Of a stretch of 39,150 nucleotides of DNA, positions 798 through 39,150 are shown piece after piece. A program made the translations under genes and the position numbers. A model generated the notes under the pieces. That model had not been told where the DNA came from and did not search any database. It saw nothing but the letters and a program-made list of their open reading frames with translations. Numbering within the stretch: position 1 is the stretch's first letter; every line of letters begins with the position of its first letter. Source of the stretch: a virus; the IMG/VR virus record IMGVR_UViG_3300021426_000003, positions 1-39,150 of that record; one strand, given 5' to 3'.

Positions 798-857
798 GCT
801 GGCATAGCACAGTCGGTAGTGCGTCGCATTGGTAGTGCGGAGGTCACGAGTTCGATT
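798..857 (+). tRNA. tRNA-Thr(GGT), 5' 60 nt only (3'-truncated after the T-loop); probable attP core region
   Basis: GCTGGCA-TA-GCAC AGTCGGTA GTGC (D arm)-G-TCGCA TTGGTAG TGCGG (anticodon arm, GGT at 831-833)-AGGTC-ACGAG TTCGATT. The expected 3' T-stem (CTCGT) and acceptor strand (TGCCAGC) are absent. Confidence 0.8.
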
Positions 858-874
858 AACATATATCAATAATA

Positions 875-926
875 ATAGGGTTCAGAAAGTCTTTAAATAC
901 CAAGGATTTTTGAATCCTATTTTTTT
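875..926 (+). terminator. Intrinsic terminator after the tRNA fragment (may also terminate the converging int transcript)
   Basis: Imperfect stem ATAGGGTTCAGAAAGTCTTT / AAGGATTTTTGAATCCTAT followed by a T run. Confidence 0.65.
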
Positions 927-937
927 GCTTTTTAAGA

Positions 938-957
938 GGTAATCAAACAGGTAATCA
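938..957 (+). repeat. Right integrase arm-type repeats (GGTAATCA x2)
   Basis: GGTAATCA at 938-945 and 950-957, same orientation as the copies at 697-726. Confidence 0.7.
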
Positions 958-962
958 ATTAT

Positions 963-2093
963 TTAAACCAATGCGAATTCTGGAATACTGTTAATTATCT
1001 CAGATTTCTTTTCTATAGATTTTCTATTTCTATGATAATATTTCTCAGAAGTAGTAATATCAGAATGACCCATTTGGTCTTTAATAAATCTTTTGTCTAA
1101 ATGCGCATCTAATAAAATAGTATCGTATGTCGCTCTTATCTTATGAGGAGACTTTTTATAAATATTAGTATCTTTACACATTTTATAAACTCTTTTTCTG
1201 ATTAATAGAGTAGTTAATCTTTTATCTTTTTCCATAAATATCCATTCTTTATTTTCAGAATATGCTTTTAAATTTCTAAGAAGCCATTGATAATTTGATG
1301 GAACAACTATTTCTCTATTACCAGCTTGAGTTTTAGAAAACATTTTAACTGTATAAATTGTTTTATTGTTTTCTTTATAACGAGTCTCTATACGTCTTAT
1401 TTTTATCGTATTCTTTTCAACATTAATGTCTTCTGATTTTAAAGCTACAATCTCACCTATTCTTGCTCCAGTTATAAACATTAATAATACAGCTGAATTT
1501 CTAATATCTAAATTATCTTTAAGATATTTAATTGCAATTGAAGTTTCTTCTTCATTAAATACTTCTTCATAATCCTCTTTAATATTTTTTTGAAATTCAT
1601 TATTACTTATCTCTAATTGGAACAATACATCTTCAGGTGTATAAGATATTAGCTTCTTTCGTTTTGCTCTTTTTAAAATACCTTTTGTAATAGTCTTTAA
1701 ACTGCCAAAAGCTTTTGCTGATAATGAATGTTCAGGAATTTGTTTTTCAAGAAATTCTATAAATTCATTTTCAGTCACATCTTTAATATGCTTTTTCCCA
1801 AAAGTTGAATAATGTCTTTTAAATACTTGTTCTAATCTAGTATGGGATGATTTACTAATCTTATTTAATTCCAACCGATAATCATTCCACTCATAAAAAA
1901 TGTCTTTTATAGTTGGAGAATTAATTGCTTCATCCCAATAAACAATAACTATGTCTTCAATATCTTTTTTACTACTTCTTTTCTTTAAAACCCTCCCTTT
2001 GTCTTCGTCTGGTAAATAAGTGTACCATTTACCATTTGTACCTTCCCATATTTTATAAGGATGGTTGGATAACAGTTCTTTTCTTTTTGTCAT
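963..2093 (-). CDS. int: Tyrosine recombinase / phage integrase
   Basis: 376 aa. Catalytic set R (TGARIGE), K (FSKT), HxxR (SPHKIR), H (QMGH), Y (EKYY). Adjacent to the tRNA fragment and arm repeats. Confidence 0.92.
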   Translation of the reverse strand: MTKRKELLSNHPYKIWEGTNGKWYTYLPDEDKGRVLKKRSSKKDIEDIVIVYWDEAINSPTIKDIFYEWNDYRLELNKISKSSHTRLEQVFKRHYSTFGKKHIKDVTENEFIEFLEKQIPEHSLSAKAFGSLKTITKGILKRAKRKKLISYTPEDVLFQLEISNNEFQKNIKEDYEEVFNEEETSIAIKYLKDNLDIRNSAVLLMFITGARIGEIVALKSEDINVEKNTIKIRRIETRYKENNKTIYTVKMFSKTQAGNREIVVPSNYQWLLRNLKAYSENKEWIFMEKDKRLTTLLIRKRVYKMCKDTNIYKKSPHKIRATYDTILLDAHLDKRFIKDQMGHSDITTSEKYYHRNRKSIEKKSEIINSIPEFALV

Positions 2094-23593: not shown

Positions 23594-26500
23594 TTAACGT
23601 ATAACATAACTATACTTTTTATAATTATTATTACCATTAGCTTGACCTAATGTAATCTCTTGAACCCATTTTTCCAGCTTTTTATTATTCATTAAATCAT
23701 TTACAAATTTATTTGCATCTTGAACACCATTAGCGATAAATTGCATATTCACAACAGGTGGTTGATTATTAGAATTATTATTATTACTTTGAATGACTTT
23801 TATATCAGGTGCAGTATATTGTTTAAGATATTTAGCTGGATCAGTTAATGCCTGATACATATTTTTCATGGCATTATTAGGAATCACAGAATCACCTTTA
23901 CTCAAAGGAGTGAGAATAGCACCATCTGATTTCCTGATAATTGCTTCAGGTTTATTACCTTCATTTGTCCAATAAAGGTCATCACGAGAAACACCTTTAG
24001 TACCAGATTTATAACCTTTCCATTTACCATCTGTATCAAATGTGAGCCATCCCCTGTTTGTTTTCTTTTTACCATTAGCAACCATAAAGCCGTTTGCATC
24101 AAGATAATAATCACCTTTAACAGGTTTTACGGTTACTGTACCTTTATGAATCCACTGATTTTTAATCATCTTTTTTGTTTTAGGGTCAAAGAAATTCCAT
24201 TGCCCAGATTTTCTTTTATACCAGCCACTTGAAGCTTTACCATCAGCTCCAAAATGATACAAACCATCTCCAACCTGTCTCCAGTCATTCACAATCATAG
24301 CTCCAGTTTTACCATCAAAATAATACTTAGCGCCATTAATAGTTTGAAGACCTTTTTGATTAACACCATTTTTATCAAAATAAAACTTTCTATTATTAAT
24401 AGTCTGAAGACCAGTAGACATCTTACCATTAGCTCCAAAATGATACAAATCTTTACCTACTTGTCTCCAGTTATTAGTAACCATACCATTTTTGTCAAAA
24501 TAATATTTAGTACCATTAATAGTCTGAAGACCTTTTTGGTTAACACCAGCATTATCAAAATAGAATTTTTTACCATTAATAGTTTGAAGTCCTTTTAGCA
24601 TTTCGCCATTTTGATTGAAATAATATAATTTACCACCAACATTTCTCCAAGTATTAGTAGCCCTAGAACCATCACTATCTAAATGGTATGTCTTTCCACC
24701 AATATTGATAAACTGAGAACCAGACATTTGTTCACCGTTATTAAAACGATATGTCTTACCATTCTTAGCAGCCCAACCTGTATATTTTTCATCAAGTGTA
24801 CCATCGTCTCTGAAATAACCATTCTTAGTTTTTCCGTTTGCATCAGTATAAGATTGGATATGAGTACCACTTTCCTTAACTTTATCAGCCATAATTCTAT
24901 TTTTAGCTCCTTGTTCAGAAGCATTTTGAGCTGATAAGAAATATTTAACAATAGTATCAACACCCTCAGCAATACTAGTCACAGCAGGATTTTCAAAACT
25001 ACCATTAAAATAACTAACTAAATTATTAGACATTGTATCAATAGCAGCTTTTAATGTATCAGAAGGAGTATAACCATAAGAATTCGCTACATCATTAATG
25101 GTATCTTTAATTACATTCTTATTTTCGTTTGTAGCATTAATTACTTCTCTAACAATTCCTTCAATGTTTTTAAGTTTATTTTCTAAGAATTCTTCAAACT
25201 TTTCTTCAAAGTCTCCAAGCATATCCTTAGTTTCAGACAAACGTCTGTCTTCTTGAGTCTCTTGAAGGTCTTGTCTCTTTTCATTAATTTGGTCTCTTAA
25301 CTGCTGACGTTTAGTAGCACCTTCTTCAGAATTATCATTTTGAATTGCTCTATATTGCTTTTCAAGTTTATTAATTTCTTTTTGTTGGTCAGCTACTTTT
25401 TTAGCATAATCAGTTTGGTCTTTTTGAGTTTCTAATAAATCTTCATAATCTTCAATTAGTTTCTTTACATAATCAATCTGTTTTTTAATACCATCTTCAG
25501 TTAAATCGACCATAGATTCTTTCATCTTTTTGGCATTAGCAGATGCATCTTGTTGAGCTTCTTTAAGCTCTTTTAATTTATCTACAAGATTCTGATCATA
25601 TTTATTTTCAGCTTTTGCCATCTGACGATTAACTTCATTAATTTCAGATTGATAACGTTGAACTTCTCTGAAATATGTATCATATTCTTGAGCAAGCAGT
25701 GCAAATCCAGTAATACCTTGATTAGTAATAGTACCTTGCTCATCAAACATTTCATCTTCATTGAGCAAATCATAGAAAAACTCTAATTCATTAACAACTC
25801 CACCAATAGCATCATGAACTTTTTCCCATCTGTCATAATTAATATCTCTAATATTATTTGCAAAAGTGATGAGATTTGTATTTGCTTCAGCAATAGATTC
25901 ACTGACTTCGTTGATAGACTGTTGCATCTCATACCAAGCTTCAGACCCTTTAGTAATTTTACCTGAATTAACAGCTCTATCTCTTAATCTGATTAAACTA
26001 TTATATTCATCTGTTAATTGAACAAGACGTTTTCTCTCTAGTGCAATTTGTTGAGTAACGTTGGTTACTGAACCAAGTCTACCAGCTTCTGACAATTGGT
26101 CATTATAAGCATCAATTAAATCAATACTATGTTGAGTATTAGCTATAACCTCTTCATAATAACTTTGTTGATTATCAAAAAGTTGCTTATATAATTCACC
26201 TTCTTTTTCTCTAAGGTCAATAACAGCATCCTTTGCGGCTAAGGCTTTTTCATAATAAGTCTTATATTCGTTTATTTTATCCCATAAATCAGAATCTTTT
26301 ACATCTTCAATTCTAAACGCACCATTTTGAACTTTAGTTCTCCAACCAGCAGATAAACCAACAGAATTAGCCTTTTTAATATATGTAGTATAAGCTTTTT
26401 CTTGGTCTTTAATTTCAGTAGACACATTCTTTAAATTAGAAGCAATAGCGTTGTTGCGTTTTGCCCATGCAGAATATGTACTGCTGATGGTTTTATCAAG

Positions 26501-32137: not shown

Positions 32138-33390
32138 CAATCTGTTACTTTCGGTTTATCAACCTACTGACTATAATTATTAAAAATTATAGCGATAAGG
32201 ACGTTAATCCTTATTCTCACATTTCATTAAAATTAGATTATAGTGTGAGTTCGGACTGTATATTACATCCTTTATAAAGGATGAATAGCTTCAATATTAT
32301 TGTTACCAATAATATCCCGCAGTCTCTACGGTTTCAATGTATTATATAAAATTTTTTTAATATCCTCATTAGTTAAATCAAACCTTAATCTTATTAAAGG
32401 GATGTTATGTTTTAAACAATATTCATCTTTAATAGAATCTCTTTCTTGAGTTTTTTTTAGCCCTTCTTCTCCACCAAAAAAATCTTTAGAAACAAAATGC
32501 TGTTGACCATCATATTCTATTAAATATAATATGTTCATATCACTATCGAAAATTGCAAAGTCGAATTTTAATTTATATTTATATTTACAATCCGAAAAAG
32601 AATACTGACGAATGTATATTATTCCCATTTTTTGCAAAAGTTTCTCAATATAATCTTCATGTGAAGATAATATTCTACATCCACAAGATGTAGTATGACC
32701 ATTAACGACTTTTGCTGGTAAAATAGAAAAGACATTACCACATAAAGGGCATTCACATTTCCAAATCCATTGTCCAAAATCATTCATATAATCCCGTTCA
32801 ATGAATCTAATATCTGTATCAGAAATAAAATTAGACCAATCTTTTGTATTCGTCTCAGATATTCTTTCTTTCCAAAGACAACCACAAGACTGGGTATGTC
32901 CAGATTGTACATCATTTTTATTTAATATTACCGTATTACCACAATCACAAACACATTTTACTTTTACTGGAGTTTCTTCCCATATTATCTCTTGTACAAC
33001 AAGTCTTCCAAAACGTTGGCTAGTTATATCTCGTCCGTTTTTTTCTATCCAACGCATTTTTCTTGCGCATCCGCAAGAATGGTATCTTTTATTTTTTAAA
33101 GTGCTTGCTCCGATAGTAACAATTTTTCCGCAATCACATTGACATTTACAATATTTTCGACTTTGACCTTTATCATCTTTTTTAAAAATTGTATCTATTA
33201 CCGTTAGCATATCAAATTTTTGTCCATCTAATATTATACGTCCCATTTTTCTCCTTTTATTTATTTTATTTATAATACATTGTCTTACCTCGGTCTTAAC
33301 TATCTCTAGCCTTTAACCGATATAGCTATTTGCTGATATAATATTTACGTATTATATCTGTATGTTACCATACATTTAGGCTATTTTCAA
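32138..33390 (-). mobile_element. Group I self-splicing intron (IA-like, 1253 nt) in the TMP gene
   Basis: 5' splice site after U (GTAGGT|TTGAAAATAGCCTA; P1 TAGGT/GCCTA with U.G). Terminal G before AAT AAT TAT. P3 AATAGCT (33324-33330)/AGCTATT (32284-32290); P4 TCGGTT/GACCGA; P7 GACTG (32320-32324)/CAGTC (32254-32258); extra P7.1 stem; P8 CATCCTTT/AAAGGATG. Splicing restores DKLNEVG|NNYAIST in frame. Confidence 0.92.
32326..33246 (-). CDS. Intron-encoded homing endonuclease (Vsr/DUF559-like EDxHD-type nuclease with three Cys-rich N-terminal repeats)
   Basis: 306 aa with AAGGAG SD; three C.C(D/P)..G...SCGC repeats; C-terminal E...FDFAI...LIEYDGQQH...RD..K..YC....IPLIRL. The stop codon overlaps the intron R element (CCGTAGAGACTG). 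Confidence 0.85.
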   Translation of the reverse strand: MGRIILDGQKFDMLTVIDTIFKKDDKGQSRKYCKCQCDCGKIVTIGASTLKNKRYHSCGCARKMRWIEKNGRDITSQRFGRLVVQEIIWEETPVKVKCVCDCGNTVILNKNDVQSGHTQSCGCLWKERISETNTKDWSNFISDTDIRFIERDYMNDFGQWIWKCECPLCGNVFSILPAKVVNGHTTSCGCRILSSHEDYIEKLLQKMGIIYIRQYSFSDCKYKYKLKFDFAIFDSDMNILYLIEYDGQQHFVSKDFFGGEEGLKKTQERDSIKDEYCLKHNIPLIRLRFDLTNEDIKKILYNTLKP

Positions 33391-36300
33391 ACCTACTTCA
33401 TTTAATTTATCTATTATATTCATTTTAGATAAATCATCATAAGCAGCCCCCATAGCAATTAAACTCTTAGTTGCTTCATCAACACTTTCAAATTCAGATA
33501 CATTCATTAAAATATTAGCAACTTTTGCAGATTCAGCGGCTTCACTTAAACTTTCACCCAAACGCATAAAATCGGCAGTACTATTTTGAATTTGTAACGC
33601 AGTTGCTCCTATTGCATCAGCTGTATCAAAAGTTGTTTTTTGATAATTTTGAAGTGTAGATATTGTTTCATTGGAAACTTTTTGCATTTCCGTTAAAGCT
33701 GTATCAAATTCTCTAATAATATTTATTCCTTGTTTAAAATAACCCCATAAACGATAAAAACCAGTGAATGATGCAAGAGTAGTAAATAAACCTCTCCATT
33801 TAGTGGTCAATTCATCTGCAAGAGTCTTAAATAAGCTTTCTGGTTCTTGTACTTTTTTAGTTGCTACTGCAACAGTGCCCATTGCTTTATCATAAGTAAA
33901 TTCAAATTCTGATATTTTTCCTTTTGTATCTTGTATTATTCTTGAAAATTTAATAAATTCATTACCGTCTTTATCGGTTATTATTCCAGTTCGAGATGAT
34001 TCGGTTATTTTCCCTTTCGCTTCTACATATTTATCTATTACTTTATTAAGTTCTTCAATATCAGATGTTTTAGGAATATTTTGTTCTATTACCCGACCCA
34101 TCTGATTATTTATATTCATTGAATCTGACGATAATACTTTTTTTAATTCTTCTAATCTTAAAACCAATTCATGTATTTTCTCTTTATCTTCTTCATATTT
34201 TTGAGTTTGTTCTTTAGTTGTACCTTTGGTTAAATTAGTAGTTAATTCATTTAATTGCTTTTGAGTTTCTACAAATTGGTTGTAAATTTCGGTATAGCGT
34301 TCAATTTTATCTCCAGCACTGCTAGGGTCAGGTATATCTTTAAACCAATTATTTAAGTTGTTAATCTTATTTCCATTTATTTCCGTATTAATAATTTTCA
34401 TACGGTTTAATTGTTCATTTACTTTATTTAACTGTTCATTAAAAGTACCATAAGCATTAGAAACTTCAACAATATTACCGACTCTATTTCCACTTTCATC
34501 TGTTGTATTATACTTATTTACAGCCTCTCGAAGTGCATCATAATAAGTTGTTAATATCCCTAATTCTTTTTCAACATTCACTAATTCTTTTGTTGGGTCT
34601 TCAGTATTCCAATTAATAGCTAATTTATCATATGTCGATTGAGCTTTATCTAATTTAGTTCTTCTAGATATTTCTCCAAACATCATATTGGGGATAGGAC
34701 TTAAAGAAGAAGAACCTTTTCTTGCATTGCTCACAACATTATTATATACAGTTTCTAATTCACTTTTTAATGTTTCTGCTCTTTGTAAACTTTTTTCATT
34801 TATAAGAGAAGCATCATTAGCCAACTGATTTAATTCTTTCATTTGATTTGATTGAACAAAATTTTCAGATGTTTTATTATTAAAAGATGCTATCCATTGT
34901 TGTAATTTTTCACGTTCTCTTTGATTTCTTTCAAGCTCTTTAGTAAAACTGGCAATTCTTTTTTGTTCATTATCAATTAATTGGATATTAGTTTGTATTA
35001 TTTTAGATTCTCCAGTTTCTTTATCGGTAATACTCTTAAAACTGTCAGTAATAATACTTTTATCTTCTGGATTTTCTCTAGTAATAGTAGCAGATTTTAA
35101 TTTAAAACCTGAAGTAACATTAAATACACTTTTTGTATGATTATAACCTTGTGATTTATACCATTCTGCAAATCTTTCTTCCATTGATTGATATGCTTCT
35201 TCATATGATTTAAATCCTTTTTCAAATTCATCAGATTCTTGCTGATATATTTTGGCTAATTCTTTTTCTGCGCCGACAACTTCTCCTTCAAATACTTCAA
35301 TATGAGGAATTGTTTCAAGTTCTGTTTTTTGTTGTTCAATTTGTTTAGTTGTTTCTTTAACTGCTTTTTGAATTCTAACTTGTGTATGTTCAACATCTTC
35401 TGCATATCCATCATCTACCATGGTAAAACCATTTGTAGAAATCATAGAAGTATTTTGAGATTGTTTTGTTTTTTTGTTTTTATTAGAATCATTATCTCCA
35501 TAAGATTCTCCTACTATAGTGAAATTAGTAGAAGATTGCTCTTTTCTTGATTTATTTGCTTTATTTTTAGCTTTTTCTATTTGATCATTTGACTCTTTTA
35601 ATTTTTGATTTTCATTTTCAACTTCTTTTGCATTAGACTTGGCACTTTCTGCGACAGATTTGTCAACATCAGATAATTTTTGTTTATTATTAATGACTTC
35701 TGTTAGTATTTTTACAGATTCTTTTAACGCTTCATTTTCTAACTTTAATTGTTCATCTGACTGTGTTGTCTTAGTAGAAGTATTATTTTTTGTTCTATTT
35801 TTATAGTATTCATATTGTCTATATAATTTATCTTGATTTGACTCAGATTCAGTTAATCTGTGAAGAGACATTTGCCCACCAGCATTTTTATATTCATCAT
35901 ACAATGAATACATTAATGTTAATTTATCTTTATTGCCTCTAGCAACAAATTTTCCTTTATCATTAACCATTGAATCATATAAACTTTGTATATATTCAAA
36001 TTGAGAATTTAAATTACTTTTACTAGCCTGACCAGATATTCTTTCAATTAAATCAACTATATCATTTAAAGAATTAACTATATTATCAAATGGAGTAGTA
36101 GAAATTTCTAATTTGTTTATTTTACTAAAATCTATTGATTTTATATTATTAGCCAATTCTACAATTAATAAATTAAGTATAATAATACCATTTTTAATAT
36201 TTTCTATTTGACCGACATAATCTTTTTGCTCAGTCATACCAGCAATAGTAACAATCATTTCCGCTAATATTTTTAAATCATTGCGAAGTCCATCTAACGA

Positions 36301-39150
36301 ATTTTTAATATTATCAACGAGGGTAAGGATATTTTGTTCTGATGCTTCAGTATTATTTTCAACTTGTTGAACGGTTTGTTGTATTTGTTGAGCTTGTTGT
36401 TGGGTTTGGTTGTTTTTATTAGAAATATTTGATGCGTTTAAAACAGAAGAAGTTGTACGTTCTTTAATTTTTTCTTGTAATTCAGAAACTGATTTATTTT
36501 TAGTTTCTGTTATTTTTTGTCCAGTTTTAACTAAAGAATCTGTAGCTGTTTTTTGTTCTTGTTGTATAGCTTGACCTGCTTTTTCGGCACTAGTTGCTAA
36601 TTTTTGATTTAAATTAATTACTTGTTCTGTCTCTTGTTTAATCCCTAAAATATTATTTTTAGCTTGTTGAGAAACTTCATCTATTTGTTTACCAGAAGCA
36701 ACAATTCTTTTTGAATCAATTGTATCAAAAAGAACATTCCCAGATTTTTTAGTCCCAAAAGAAGTTCCAGATAAATCTATGCCTTGATATCCCAATTGTT
36801 TTAAAAAACGTGTTTTAATATCATCTACACCATATTCCTTTTTGAAATCATACATCTGCTTAGGAATTATAGTACCGTCTGATTTTATACCGCTTTTTGA
36901 TACCAATTCAGACATATTGCTAATAAAACTATCAAATTCATCAATTGTCATTTTAAAATTAGGAAATAATTTTTGAGCGGTTTTATATAAAGAATTTATA
37001 TCTACATCTTTTAAATTATCTTCAAATCCAGTAAAACCACTTCCTAATGAAATACATAACTGTTCTAAATGATGTATAAATTCATAAAATTCTTGTGCGA
37101 TTTCTTCAGTATGCGCTTCATATAATTTTAAATCACTTGTATCAATAGCATAAAATTTTTCTAAAGACTTATCAGAAATTGGAGTTTTAGAAAAACTACT
37201 TATATCTTTTGTTGTATATAAACCCGTACCACCTCCCCATCCACGACCAGAATCTTTTATTCCTGCAAACCAAGATTTTAATTCATCTCCAAATGGATGA
37301 GACGATCTTTGAGATTGCCCATTAATATTTCCATAATGATACATTAAGCCGTTTATTTTTTTTTCTTTTTCTTCATTTGTTAATTCTTTAGACGCTTCTT
37401 TTTCTTGATGAATTGATTGTGCTGCTTCTTCTGCACTATGAGCTAATTTATTATTAGAATCAATTACTTGTTTATTTGAATTAACTGTTTCTTGAGATAT
37501 TTGTTCTGTTTGTTCTTCTTGCGGCTCTTTTTTTGAAGGGATAACAAGTTTTTGCCTAGGCGTTCTTGTTTTTGGTTGTGAAAAAGATGATGGGTGAGTT
37601 ATGTCATTATTTCCTTGATTATTTGTTAAAGGTTTTAAATTTTTAGAAGTATTTATACCCGTTTTACCTATATCTTGAAGGGTTTGATTAATCTCTTTAA
37701 GTAAAGATAAAATTTCATTTAATTGTTCTTTATCAGTTTCTAATATTCCAGATGGTATAAAAATATCGCTACCTAAATCTGTCTTGTCGGTCTTTTTTTT
37801 AACTGATTTATTATTTTTTATATACTTTTTATATTCGTTATTAAAGTATTTTATTTTTTCTGCGTCAGATTCTCCAGATAATAAATCCGTAATTGGTCTA
37901 ATACCACCTCTAGCTTGGTATGTTGAATATAAAGAAAATAACTCACGTAATTGTTTTTTCTTTTCTTTTATAAGTTCTAATTCTTTTTCTTCTTTTCCTT
38001 TTGTTCCTTGAGACAATAATCCTAAATCGAGTTTAGAATAATTATTTTTAATTATTTCAAATTGACTTTCAAGCCCATTTTTGTTTAATTTTGTAGATAC
38101 ATTATCAATAGCAGCTGTTAATTTTTTAAAACTTTCTGAAATTCCTTCCAAGTTTTTAGAATATAATTCTAAATTTTCAGAAGAAAATGAAGCATTAAAT
38201 TTTTCATCTGCTGTTTTAATTGTATCAATTTCTTTGGAAAAATCTTTTAAACTAGCAAGGAGTTGAGTTATTGAAGTGGCAATACCTTCAAAATTTTGCT
38301 GTGTTTGTTTAATTCCTGTTTCATTTAAAATTTTCCCCATTGTATTATTTAATTCTTGAGCCTGTTCTTGAAGACGCATAGAAATATCATTAAAATAAGA
38401 ATTAATTGCTTCAGATAATTTATTTTCGTCTTCTTTAATAGGATTAAAATTAAATTGAATAGGATGTTCGTCTATTTGTGATTGTGCATTACCAATTATT
38501 TCTCCAATTTGAGCTGTTATATCTCTTTTCGCATTTTCTTTTAATTTAACTGGAATTTCAATAGCCCCTTTAACCACAAAACCTTTAGTTCCATTTTCAA
38601 TCGTTCCAGATATTTGTTTTTGAAAAAAAGCCCCTATATCAATTGAAGAAAACATTGTTTCGATTGCTTGTCTTGTCTGATTGGACAATTGGCTACCTAG
38701 TACTTTAGAAGCTTGTTCAGATATTTTAATTATTGAATCTAGTTTTTCTGGAGATAAAAAAGGTTTATCATTATTAGCATCTGTATAAGCAGCATCAACC
38801 TGTACCAATGCTTCTGCATATTTAAACAAAGCAGAAGCGGCTTCTTGATATTCTTTACTATATCCACCTTTTATTCCCTTTTTATTTGCTTCGTTAAAAT
38901 TTTGAAACAAAAATTCTGCTTCATTAAAAGCTTTTTCAAGTTGACTTATATTAGTAATATCATTTATATTAGTTCTATTACTTAAAAAACTTTCTGATTC
39001 TTTTTTTAAAAGAGTATATTGTAAAGCAACCTCTTTCATATTAGAGGACATTTTTTCCATTTGAGCATTTAAAGTATCAGTATTGAGATTCCTGACTGTT
39101 TCTTGTAATGTCCCAAAAGTATGTCTAAAACTATCAAATTTTTTATTTAA
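33391..39150 (-). CDS. Tape measure protein, exon 1 (5' end outside the window), containing an ART-like insert
   Basis: Frame is open from 39150 (LNKKFDSF...AQ-MEKM) to GGT at 33391-33393 (1920 codons). Ends with the start of the TMP core (IREFDTALTEMQKVS...ADFMRLG...IIDKLNEVG); long coiled coils. Confidence 0.88.

Follow-up and report, generated by a model that had tools for sequence, protein, structure and literature searches.

T4 Alt and the MuF-VIP2 proteins are ADP-ribosyltransferases (ARTs) that are carried in the virion, injected together with the DNA and active before phage transcription (PMC5512222, PMC9503650, PMC7302621). In the ART-PolyVal group the active site consists of a His on strand 1, a Tyr on strand 2 and an Asp on strand 5 (Iyer et al. 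2017, PMC5512222), and in AcrIF11 a catalytic Asp/Glu pair is located in a loop directly after a variable helical region (10.1101/2024.08.26.609590). DUF3990, DUF952, RES, PTS_2-RNA and ART-PolyVal are placed in or with the Pfam ART clan, and the mono-ARTs listed include PARPs with H-Y-I, H-Y-L or H-Y-Y triads (PMC7955679). Here, we describe a conserved domain with an ART-like predicted fold that is embedded in the tail tape measure protein (TMP) of the virus IMGVR_UViG_3300021426_000003 and that, judged from its structure model and its language-model neighbours, appears closest to the phage ART-PolyVal/AcrIF11 group. The whole stretch of DNA analysed, positions 1 to 39,150 of this record (39,150 nucleotides), is called the window.

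The family to which the domain belongs comprises about 100 clusters and is without a name in Pfam, PHROGs and NCBI phage records. In the literature, of which papers naming both terms were covered in part, no TMP with an ART-like domain was found to be described. The term 'tape measure' is absent from the text of the polyvalent protein survey of Iyer et al. (2017, PMC5512222) and from that of the 2022 survey of nicotinamide adenine dinucleotide (NAD) and ADPr in viruses.

The Tape Measure Protein Contains a Conserved Globular Domain

IMGVR_UViG_3300021426_000003 is a complete virus genome of 149,019 bp with direct terminal repeats. Its long minus-strand open reading frame (ORF) P0001 (33376..39060) encodes 1894 amino acids (aa) from an internal ATG, and the frame is still open at the window edge. 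Residue numbers refer to P0001; the gene call of the collection comprises 2011 aa, so that 117 has to be added for the additional N-terminal residues. A sequence-only reading of the window had proposed an ART-like domain on the basis of several short motifs, and all of these were recovered in this one minus-strand ORF, between positions 36724 and 37347. The globular island of about 210 aa postulated there is indeed a distinct region of the protein. The sum of E, K, Q and N per 50-residue block amounts to 8-14 in the island compared to 17-27 in most flanking blocks, and the island is rich in G, W, F, Y and H relative to its flanks. The existence of 99 homologous clusters and the conservation within them show that the island is a real domain, of a family under constraint.

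The carrier was likewise named correctly as a TMP. P0001 residues 1360-1890 match PHROG 4211 (tail length tape measure protein) with an E value of 1.3e-10, and positions 87-190 of the Pfam PhageMin_Tail profile match residues 2-134 of a second exon described below; PhageMin_Tail was also present in 8 of 27 scanned homologues. These profile matches identify the protein that carries the ART-like domain as a phage tail TMP. Two features had escaped the earlier reading: the TMP gene, which encodes ~4854 aa, is split by a probable intron, and some 1100 residues separate the domain from the tape measure core that follows it.

A phmmer search with the domain against 1.84 billion cluster representatives, counted as clusters at 50% identity, yielded 99 proteins at E<=1e-3 and 61 at E<=1e-10. 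Almost all of the 99 are proteins of 1300-6000 aa with a tape measure core, in which the match lies at one internal place; some, among them P0029 and P0050, carry two copies. When exon 1 was compared with 75 long homologues, only two parts proved conserved, the ART-like domain (~545-800) and the tape measure core (~1680-1890), whereas the helical, low-complexity remainder was not. The domain always precedes the core in the 55 homologues with both features, starting at a median of residue 537, and the distance from the domain end to the core junction ranges from 545 to 2618 residues (median 1072).

In an alignment of 98 sequences, the motifs quoted in the sequence-only reading turned out to be conserved family columns, with the consensus [YF]-H-x-G, G-x-G-x-G-T-G-[LI]-[YF], I-D-x-S-K-Y-N-[LM]-Y, T-R-F-M-K-x-L-G-Y-[QE]-G-[VI]-[DN] and G-S-V-[IL]-F-D. 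Conserved columns are H575, G611, G613, D640, S642, E653, A655, F661, L691, F699, T750, R751, K754, G757, G760, G774 and D779, and the window copy retains every family-wide conserved residue, including those at the His575 and Tyr615 positions. Gly577 is present in 91 of 94 sequences, while Gly611 (83/83) and Gly613 (95/95) are found in all sequences with a residue at those columns; Asp occupies the column of Asp640 in 88 and Ser that of Ser642 in 86 of the 98 sequences, and G757, G760 and G774 are near-invariant.

All family sources so far are metagenomic assemblies of uncultured phages, the longest source contigs being ~145-170 kb. None of the 25 relatives listed came from NCBI, and a functional name was absent from all members with listed sources. 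A tblastn search of 50,697 INPHARED phage records and 72,556 PLSDB plasmids gave no match to the domain. Searching viral and genome contigs with the single domain revealed no relatives, and later scans gave 4 usable loci only.

Predicted Fold and Structural Neighbours

An AlphaFold2 model built from a 27-sequence alignment reached a pLDDT (predicted local distance difference test) of 89 and a pTM (predicted template modelling score) of 0.88, compared to a pLDDT of only 36.6 for a single-sequence AlphaFold model of the domain. In the model, strand 1 (LMYHYG) is followed by a helix, a glycine-rich loop, strand 2 (LYTT) and strands 3 and 4 (KFYAID, LYE); these are followed by five helices (~651-755) and three short strands (GID, SGNVL, IVASG).

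The nearest predicted viral structures to this model are ART-PolyVal proteins. A Foldseek search against BFVD returned them at ranks 1 and 2 (E 1.5e-3 and 3.9e-3, probability 0.90), and among the top 50 matches ranks 1, 2 and 4 as well as at least seven more were ART-PolyVal or polyvalent-protein entries; the best match had a TM (template modelling) score of 0.28-0.34. Against the PDB, Foldseek gave no match at E<=0.001. The weak PDB matches fell into two classes, namely helical bundles such as TetR, which cover the insertion only, and matches spanning the whole domain, all of which are ART-clan proteins except 9k3a_B. No AcrIF11 structure was among the fold matches listed and no sequence match to AcrIF11 was found. 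Consistent with the BFVD result, the ESM Atlas neighbours of the window copy are PF18760 and AcrIF11 clusters (score 0.93, 177/256 features), and the same clusters were obtained for a stand-alone relative with 24% identity (0.94, 188 features). Since these individually weak lines, together with sub-threshold hidden Markov model (HMM) matches of stand-alone relatives (see below), agree with each other, we consider an ART-superfamily fold of the modelled residues 572-790 likely.

Family membership is a different matter. At E<=0.1, PF18760 (gathering score 31.2 bits) had no match in 27 family members, PHROGs gave no match to the window domain, and neither Pfam nor PHROGs reported an ADPrib_exo_Tox, VIP2 or Alt family for the window copy, to which no similarity of Alt or VIP2 was detected otherwise. 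By score, the window domain is not a member of PF18760. Of the original assignment as an ART-PolyVal-type domain, the ART-like fold was retained (BFVD, ESM Atlas, placement of His and Tyr), whereas PF18760 membership by score had to be given up after the Pfam and six-frame searches. The Foldseek and profile comparison proposed along with it was similarly divided, with ART-PolyVal on top in BFVD but nothing at the above threshold in the PDB and little in hhalign (see Discussion).

The top Foldseek match in the PDB, 9k3a_B, comes from the cyanophage A4 pre-ejectosome, of which it forms one chain, and a relative from Pf-WMP3 ranked third in BFVD. As a weak lead from model comparison, an ART-like domain may have gone unrecognised in podovirus ejection proteins. 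The Pf-WMP3 gp26 homologue (L018 21214-25701) showed no Pfam match and no profile match to the ART-like family, and the cyanophage A4 paper reports no ART (PMC12002296).

Candidate Active-Site Residues

Candidate catalytic residues were mapped by motif and strand order. His575 is located on model strand 1 and Tyr615 on model strand 2, as in ART-PolyVal. The His575 column contains His in 76, Arg in 14 and Lys in 2 of 93 sequences, and the Tyr615 column Tyr in 62 and Phe in 30. ARTs use His or Arg at the first position of the NAD site (H-Y-E and R-S-E classes), and the alternation at position 575 echoes these two classes at the level of the alignment. Arg or Lys occurs mostly in a LLLYRR subgroup, in which G-D-G replaces G-T-G, as well as in stand-alone GYRAGNL proteins.

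The region of the third residue has the family consensus L-G-Y-[QE]-G-[VI]-[DN]-x-x-G-T-x-[FY]-[DG]-G-x-x-x-G-S-V-[IL]-F-D, in which several positions are candidates for the acid. Position 759 is Gln in 48, Glu in 34 and Asp in 8 members (Glu or Asp in 42/97), with Gln in the window copy; position 762, on model strand 5, is Asp in 48/97 and Asn in 32, with Asp in the window. An acid is found at position 769 in 64/96 members (Gly in the window) and at positions 771-773 in 19/96 (Lys at 772 in the window). Position 779, at the end of the strand after strand 5, is Asp in 80/97 members and in the window copy. The residues of the window copy are as compatible with a pseudo-enzyme as they are with a mono-ART or NADase relying on a non-canonical acid.

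A 'floating acid' was considered, as at least one of the positions 759, 762 and 767-773 is Asp or Glu in 92 of 96 members. This frequency is close to chance expectation; since many positions and related sequences are involved, no weight was given to the idea.

Stand-Alone Relatives

Stand-alone versions of the domain with 200-360 aa also exist, and one stand-alone subfamily proved homologous to the copies found in TMPs (hhalign probability 99.5%). One such copy is encoded on a 109-kb viral contig among non-structural genes for a UvrD-like helicase, DUF4116 repeat proteins and a PcfJ-like protein. Stand-alone copies in such a neighbourhood indicate that the domain is not merely a tail part or spacer, and the gene contexts argue for a soluble, intracellular mode of action. 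The stand-alone versions are candidate host-takeover or anti-defence enzymes. Sub-threshold HMM matches to DUF3990 (E 0.0025-0.046) were obtained for 7 of 10 stand-alone proteins and to ART-PolyVal with E 0.006-0.025 (13.8-15.8 bits); both fall on the G-T-G-F-Y-F-F motif.

On the viral contig IMGVR_UViG_3300027754_005987 (L014 806-2826 = L019 7875-9892), three adjacent ORFs of 195, 293 and 179 aa have a common N-terminal leader, MKG[LF]IK-LLREGL. The middle ORF is a stand-alone, Arg-type family member, and the first contains YH-T ... G-L-G-F-Y-G motifs. This shared leader possibly serves as a signal for targeting or packaging.

The Tape Measure Gene and Its Probable Intron

The exon 1 ORF stops inside the conserved tape measure core at ...NEVG-LKIA*, and after 1.25 kb a 2848-aa ORF resumes with NNYAIST. 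Forty uninterrupted homologues align without a gap over NEVG|NNYAIS, the Gly of NEVG being directly followed by the first Asn of exon 2. Because these homologues are contiguous over the junction, the two exons encode one TMP of ~4854 aa (2007 + 2847), which is interrupted at 32138-33390; the final four residues (LKIA) of the 2011-aa gene call are read-through into the intron. The coordinates of all features are compiled in Table 1.

The boundaries are group I-like, with a U at the end of the 5' exon and a G at the end of the insert, and exon UAGGU is able to pair with intron GCCUA, placing a U.G wobble at the splice site. Rfam found no group I model for the intervening sequence. The insert contains an ORF that, besides its match to an HNH endonuclease family, also matches PHROG 9084 and 7140 (homing or intron-encoded nuclease) and Pfam DUF2726. 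From these sequence features, the insert is probably a group I intron with an HNH endonuclease.

In the 5' part of the intron, directly past the splice site, a sub-threshold match to the Rfam Bacilli-1 RNA was observed (window 33321-33375, minus strand; 26.9 bits versus a gathering score of 55.6, E 0.0013), which spans the full 65-position model and may represent an intron element. At the same junction, 7 of 55 homologues end within at most 6 residues, and 22 of 55 end 7-80 residues past it, many of them at 38-65. The pattern suggests that the TMP core of the phage clade contains sites into which introns or endonucleases have inserted repeatedly, some of the ends perhaps being contig ends.

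Table 1: Features of the tape measure gene and its ART-like domain in the window (residues numbered according to P0001).
Feature	Residues	Window position	Strand	Basis or remark
Tape measure gene, exon 1		33391..39150	minus	ORF list, translation, PHROG 4211; open at window edge
Upstream linker	515-560	37381..37518	minus	similar to downstream linker
ART-like domain	572-790	36691..37347	minus	99 homologous clusters, AlphaFold, BFVD, PDB, ESM Atlas
Strand 1, LMYHYGN	572-578	37327..37347 (His575 codon 37336-37338)	minus	DSSP strand, model residues 13-18
Glycine-rich loop and strand 2, GRGWGGGTGLYTTKD	605-619	37204..37248 (Tyr615 codon 37216-37218)	minus	strand, model residues 55-58
Strands 3 and 4, FYAIDTSDLKLY	636-647	37120..37155	minus	strands, model residues 76-81 and 87-89; conserved Asp640, Ser642
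Helical insertion, five helices between strands 4 and 5	651-755	36796..37110	minus	ends in conserved T-R-F-[LM]-K helix
C-terminal strands, LKQLGYQGID ... GNVLFD	753-762 and 774-779	36724..36804 (36775-36804 and 36724-36741)	minus	candidate acids
Candidate catalytic acids	Asp762 and Asp779	codons 36775-36777 and 36724-36726	minus	
Downstream linker	790-841	36538..36693	minus	repeat partner of upstream linker
First half of conserved tape measure core, TALTEMQKVS ... NEVG	~1680-1890	33391..34023	minus	conserved in 52-74 of 75 long homologues; PHROG 4211
Intervening sequence, 1253 nucleotides, probable group I intron within tape measure core		32138..33390	minus	gap-free homologue alignment, boundary bases
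HNH/homing endonuclease ORF, 306 aa, within intron		32326..33246	minus	PHROG 559 HNH endonuclease, E 3e-40
Tape measure gene, exon 2, 2847 aa		23594..32137	minus	rest of PhageMin_Tail core and C-terminal choline-binding repeats

Flanking Linkers and Genomic Context

In the window, the linkers on both sides of the domain resemble each other, with a local alignment score of 83 versus 38.7 +/- 6.3 for shuffles (z = 7). Among 66 homologues, only 4 reached z >= 5, and one of these is an artefact. The repeated linkers were therefore rejected as a family feature, and with them the idea of a swappable cargo slot, as the repeat is absent in most homologues. A further internal duplication was detected in the N-terminal extension (window 37801-38251 and 35767-36228; P0001 ~270-420 and 945-1098) with z = 10 over shuffles. 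It flanks the ART-like domain on both sides and has the common motif SQFE-I...LYS-Y...GG...ES...K.

Near the C-terminus of the TMP, Choline_bind_1, 2 and 3 match exon 2 residues 2494-2620 (window 24281-24661, minus strand; Choline_bind_3 E 1.6e-28). These choline-binding, that is cell-wall-binding, repeats represent an unusual wall-anchoring module at the end that leaves the tail first. Downstream of the TMP gene, tail, fibre and endolysin genes and an integrase gene were found. Among phages, the endolysin has its nearest relatives in human faecal samples and in phages of Bacillota, and the window phage has gut-phage affinities. A tRNA-Thr(GGT) gene adjoins the tyrosine-integrase gene (963-2093, minus strand) at window positions 798-2093; a temperate lifestyle is probable.

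Outside the window, a 152-aa ORF of the same genome (144391-144849; L015 1252-1710) gave a sub-threshold match to the Macro domain (16.7 bits, cut-off 22, E 0.007) and adjoins a gene for a PTH2 peptidyl-tRNA hydrolase (E 1.3e-24). Going by this match, the ORF could encode an ADP-ribose-binding or ADP-ribose-removing partner. A search of the phage genome for ARH (PF03747) gave no match.

Discussion

The domain exists, is conserved and fused to a tape measure core, and its predicted fold is ART-like with His and Tyr in place. We see an even chance that residues 572-790 represent, in every respect, an independently folding, divergent member of the ART superfamily that is delivered by the tail and uses NAD+. 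For an active injected effector, which is proposed by analogy, the balance tips slightly to the negative side. NAD+ binding, catalysis, entry into the cytoplasm, the target and a role in takeover or anti-defence are steps that we infer.

The tail tube of siphophages is filled by the TMP, whose C-terminus lies at the tip and which is ejected when a cell is infected. The ART-like domain would travel in the virion as part of the TMP and, because of its position near the N-terminus, would leave the tail last at ejection, just ahead of the DNA. As a folded 24-kDa domain in three copies is probably too big for the lumen, it would be carried unfolded or at the head-tail junction and would fold on arrival. 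Having folded or refolded in the cell, it would bind NAD+ and either mono-ADP-ribosylate a host protein or nucleic acid or cleave NAD+, before phage genes are expressed. It appears rather doubtful that the entire N-terminal extension of ~1900 residues serves as an effector carrier, with the tail delivering an NAD+-dependent enzyme into the cytoplasm and a host defence or transcription component becoming ADP-ribosylated. If this were true, the head-proximal end of a siphophage TMP would fully enter the cell. Since an NAD+-dependent TMP domain needs cytoplasmic NAD+, its activity would be a direct reporter of how far the TMP travels in long-tailed phages.

Several observations weigh against a tail-delivered, NAD+-using ART. 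Three folded 24-kDa domains side by side are unlikely to fit into the lumen of the tail tube, and NAD+ is available only in the cytoplasm. The third catalytic acid has no single fixed position in the family, and the window copy is without the acids common in its relatives at 769 or 771-773, so that only Asp762 and Asp779 remain. What we take to be the place of the PARP-type catalytic Glu, the start of the penultimate strand, is occupied here, going by the order of secondary structures, by Gly774, which is near-invariant and precedes a Ser, Thr or Asn. Sequence and profile searches were also unfavourable: Pfam gave no match at E<=1 for the window copy or P0001, a six-frame search of the whole 149-kb phage with PF18760 produced 0 candidates, and phmmer and the family profile retrieved only noise from the PDB sequences (Hcp1, E 0.022; QnrB pentapeptide repeats, E 0.05). 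In hhalign, a 13-sequence Atu_ph07-like subfamily resembling ART-PolyVal aligned in the expected register, though weakly and without significance (P 0.004, probability 8%), and with the 98-sequence profile the probability dropped to ~1%; precomputed annotation places PF18760 on two of the 13 members of this subfamily.

Some of these points would be explained if the fold were that of an ART but catalytically dead, the domain acting as a binding or structural module of the TMP, for example as a binder of nucleotides or envelope ligands, as an assembly checkpoint or head-proximal plug, or as a docking site for a host protein. We regard such a pseudo-enzyme as unlikely on balance, though as the most serious competitor. 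The Gly at the canonical acid position speaks for it, as do a putative acid that wanders among five positions and the absence of D769 and E772 from the window copy and its closest relatives; in P0003 and P0005, D779 is the one candidate acid left. The constant fusion to a structural protein, in which the domain takes up much the same position, and the repeated flanking linkers of the window point in the same direction. However, His575, the glycine-rich loop, Tyr/Phe615, T750, R751 and K754 are strongly conserved, as one would expect of a ligand-binding or active site rather than of a spacer, and the stand-alone versions reside in non-structural gene neighbourhoods. Nor is the missing Glu proof of inactivity, because the PARPs with H-Y-I, H-Y-L and H-Y-Y triads are listed as active mono-ARTs (PMC7955679). 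Even an inactive domain would clearly exemplify how a tail can take up an enzyme fold as one of its structural or binding elements.

It is improbable, and clearly more so than a dead enzyme, that the domain is no relative of ARTs at all but an unrelated alpha/beta domain of a new or different fold, e.g. an envelope-active enzyme such as TMPs and ejection proteins often contain, whose likeness to ARTs results from a common arrangement of a small beta-sheet. This would have to be reconciled with the ART-PolyVal matches among viral models, with the agreement of language-model features for two members of only 24% identity and with sub-threshold HMM matches to two ART-clan families that recur at one motif. 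Apart from 9k3a_B, no non-ART match in the PDB spans both halves of the beta core, and no peptidoglycan-hydrolase family was matched by Pfam in the window and 27 homologues.

ART-PolyVal (PF18760; Tox-ART-HYD2 clade) shares with the window family the His on strand 1, the Tyr on strand 2, which follows a turn rich in glycine, and a GY-x-G-[IV] strand that comes behind the helical region. Both are parts of very large phage proteins associated with the virion, some of which contain them more than once (PMC5512222), and for both an action on the host at entry is predicted. The window family differs by H-x-G instead of H-G, by a far longer helical insertion of ~105 residues, by a strand-5 Asp that is not fixed and by the TMP as carrier. 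AcrIF11 (PF26151; PDB 6KYF, 8DWQ) is likewise a small phage ART with H-F/Y and an Asp, in which a central helical region of low conservation directly precedes the catalytic acid loop; unlike the window domain, it is a freely expressed protein of 130-160 aa, which modifies Asn250 of Csy1. DUF3990 (PF13151) and DUF952 belong to the ART clan and have no assigned function; their scores are below the curated cut-offs, and they have neither the helical insertion nor a link to TMPs.

With regard to delivery, T4 Alt and MuF-VIP2 belong to the Arg-Ser-Glu clade, whereas in the window copy the first position is His, and they are packaged into the head via a capsid-targeting signal or MuF fusion, whereas the window domain is borne by the tail. 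Enzymes known from TMPs and ejection proteins, i.e. lytic transglycosylases and M23 peptidases such as A4 gp28 (PMC12002296), attack peptidoglycan on the outer side of the membrane and do not depend on a cofactor from the cytoplasm. That virions can deliver an ART is already established for T4 Alt, MuF-VIP2 and polyvalent proteins; the domain described here adds a distinct, unnamed ART-like family in a new carrier.

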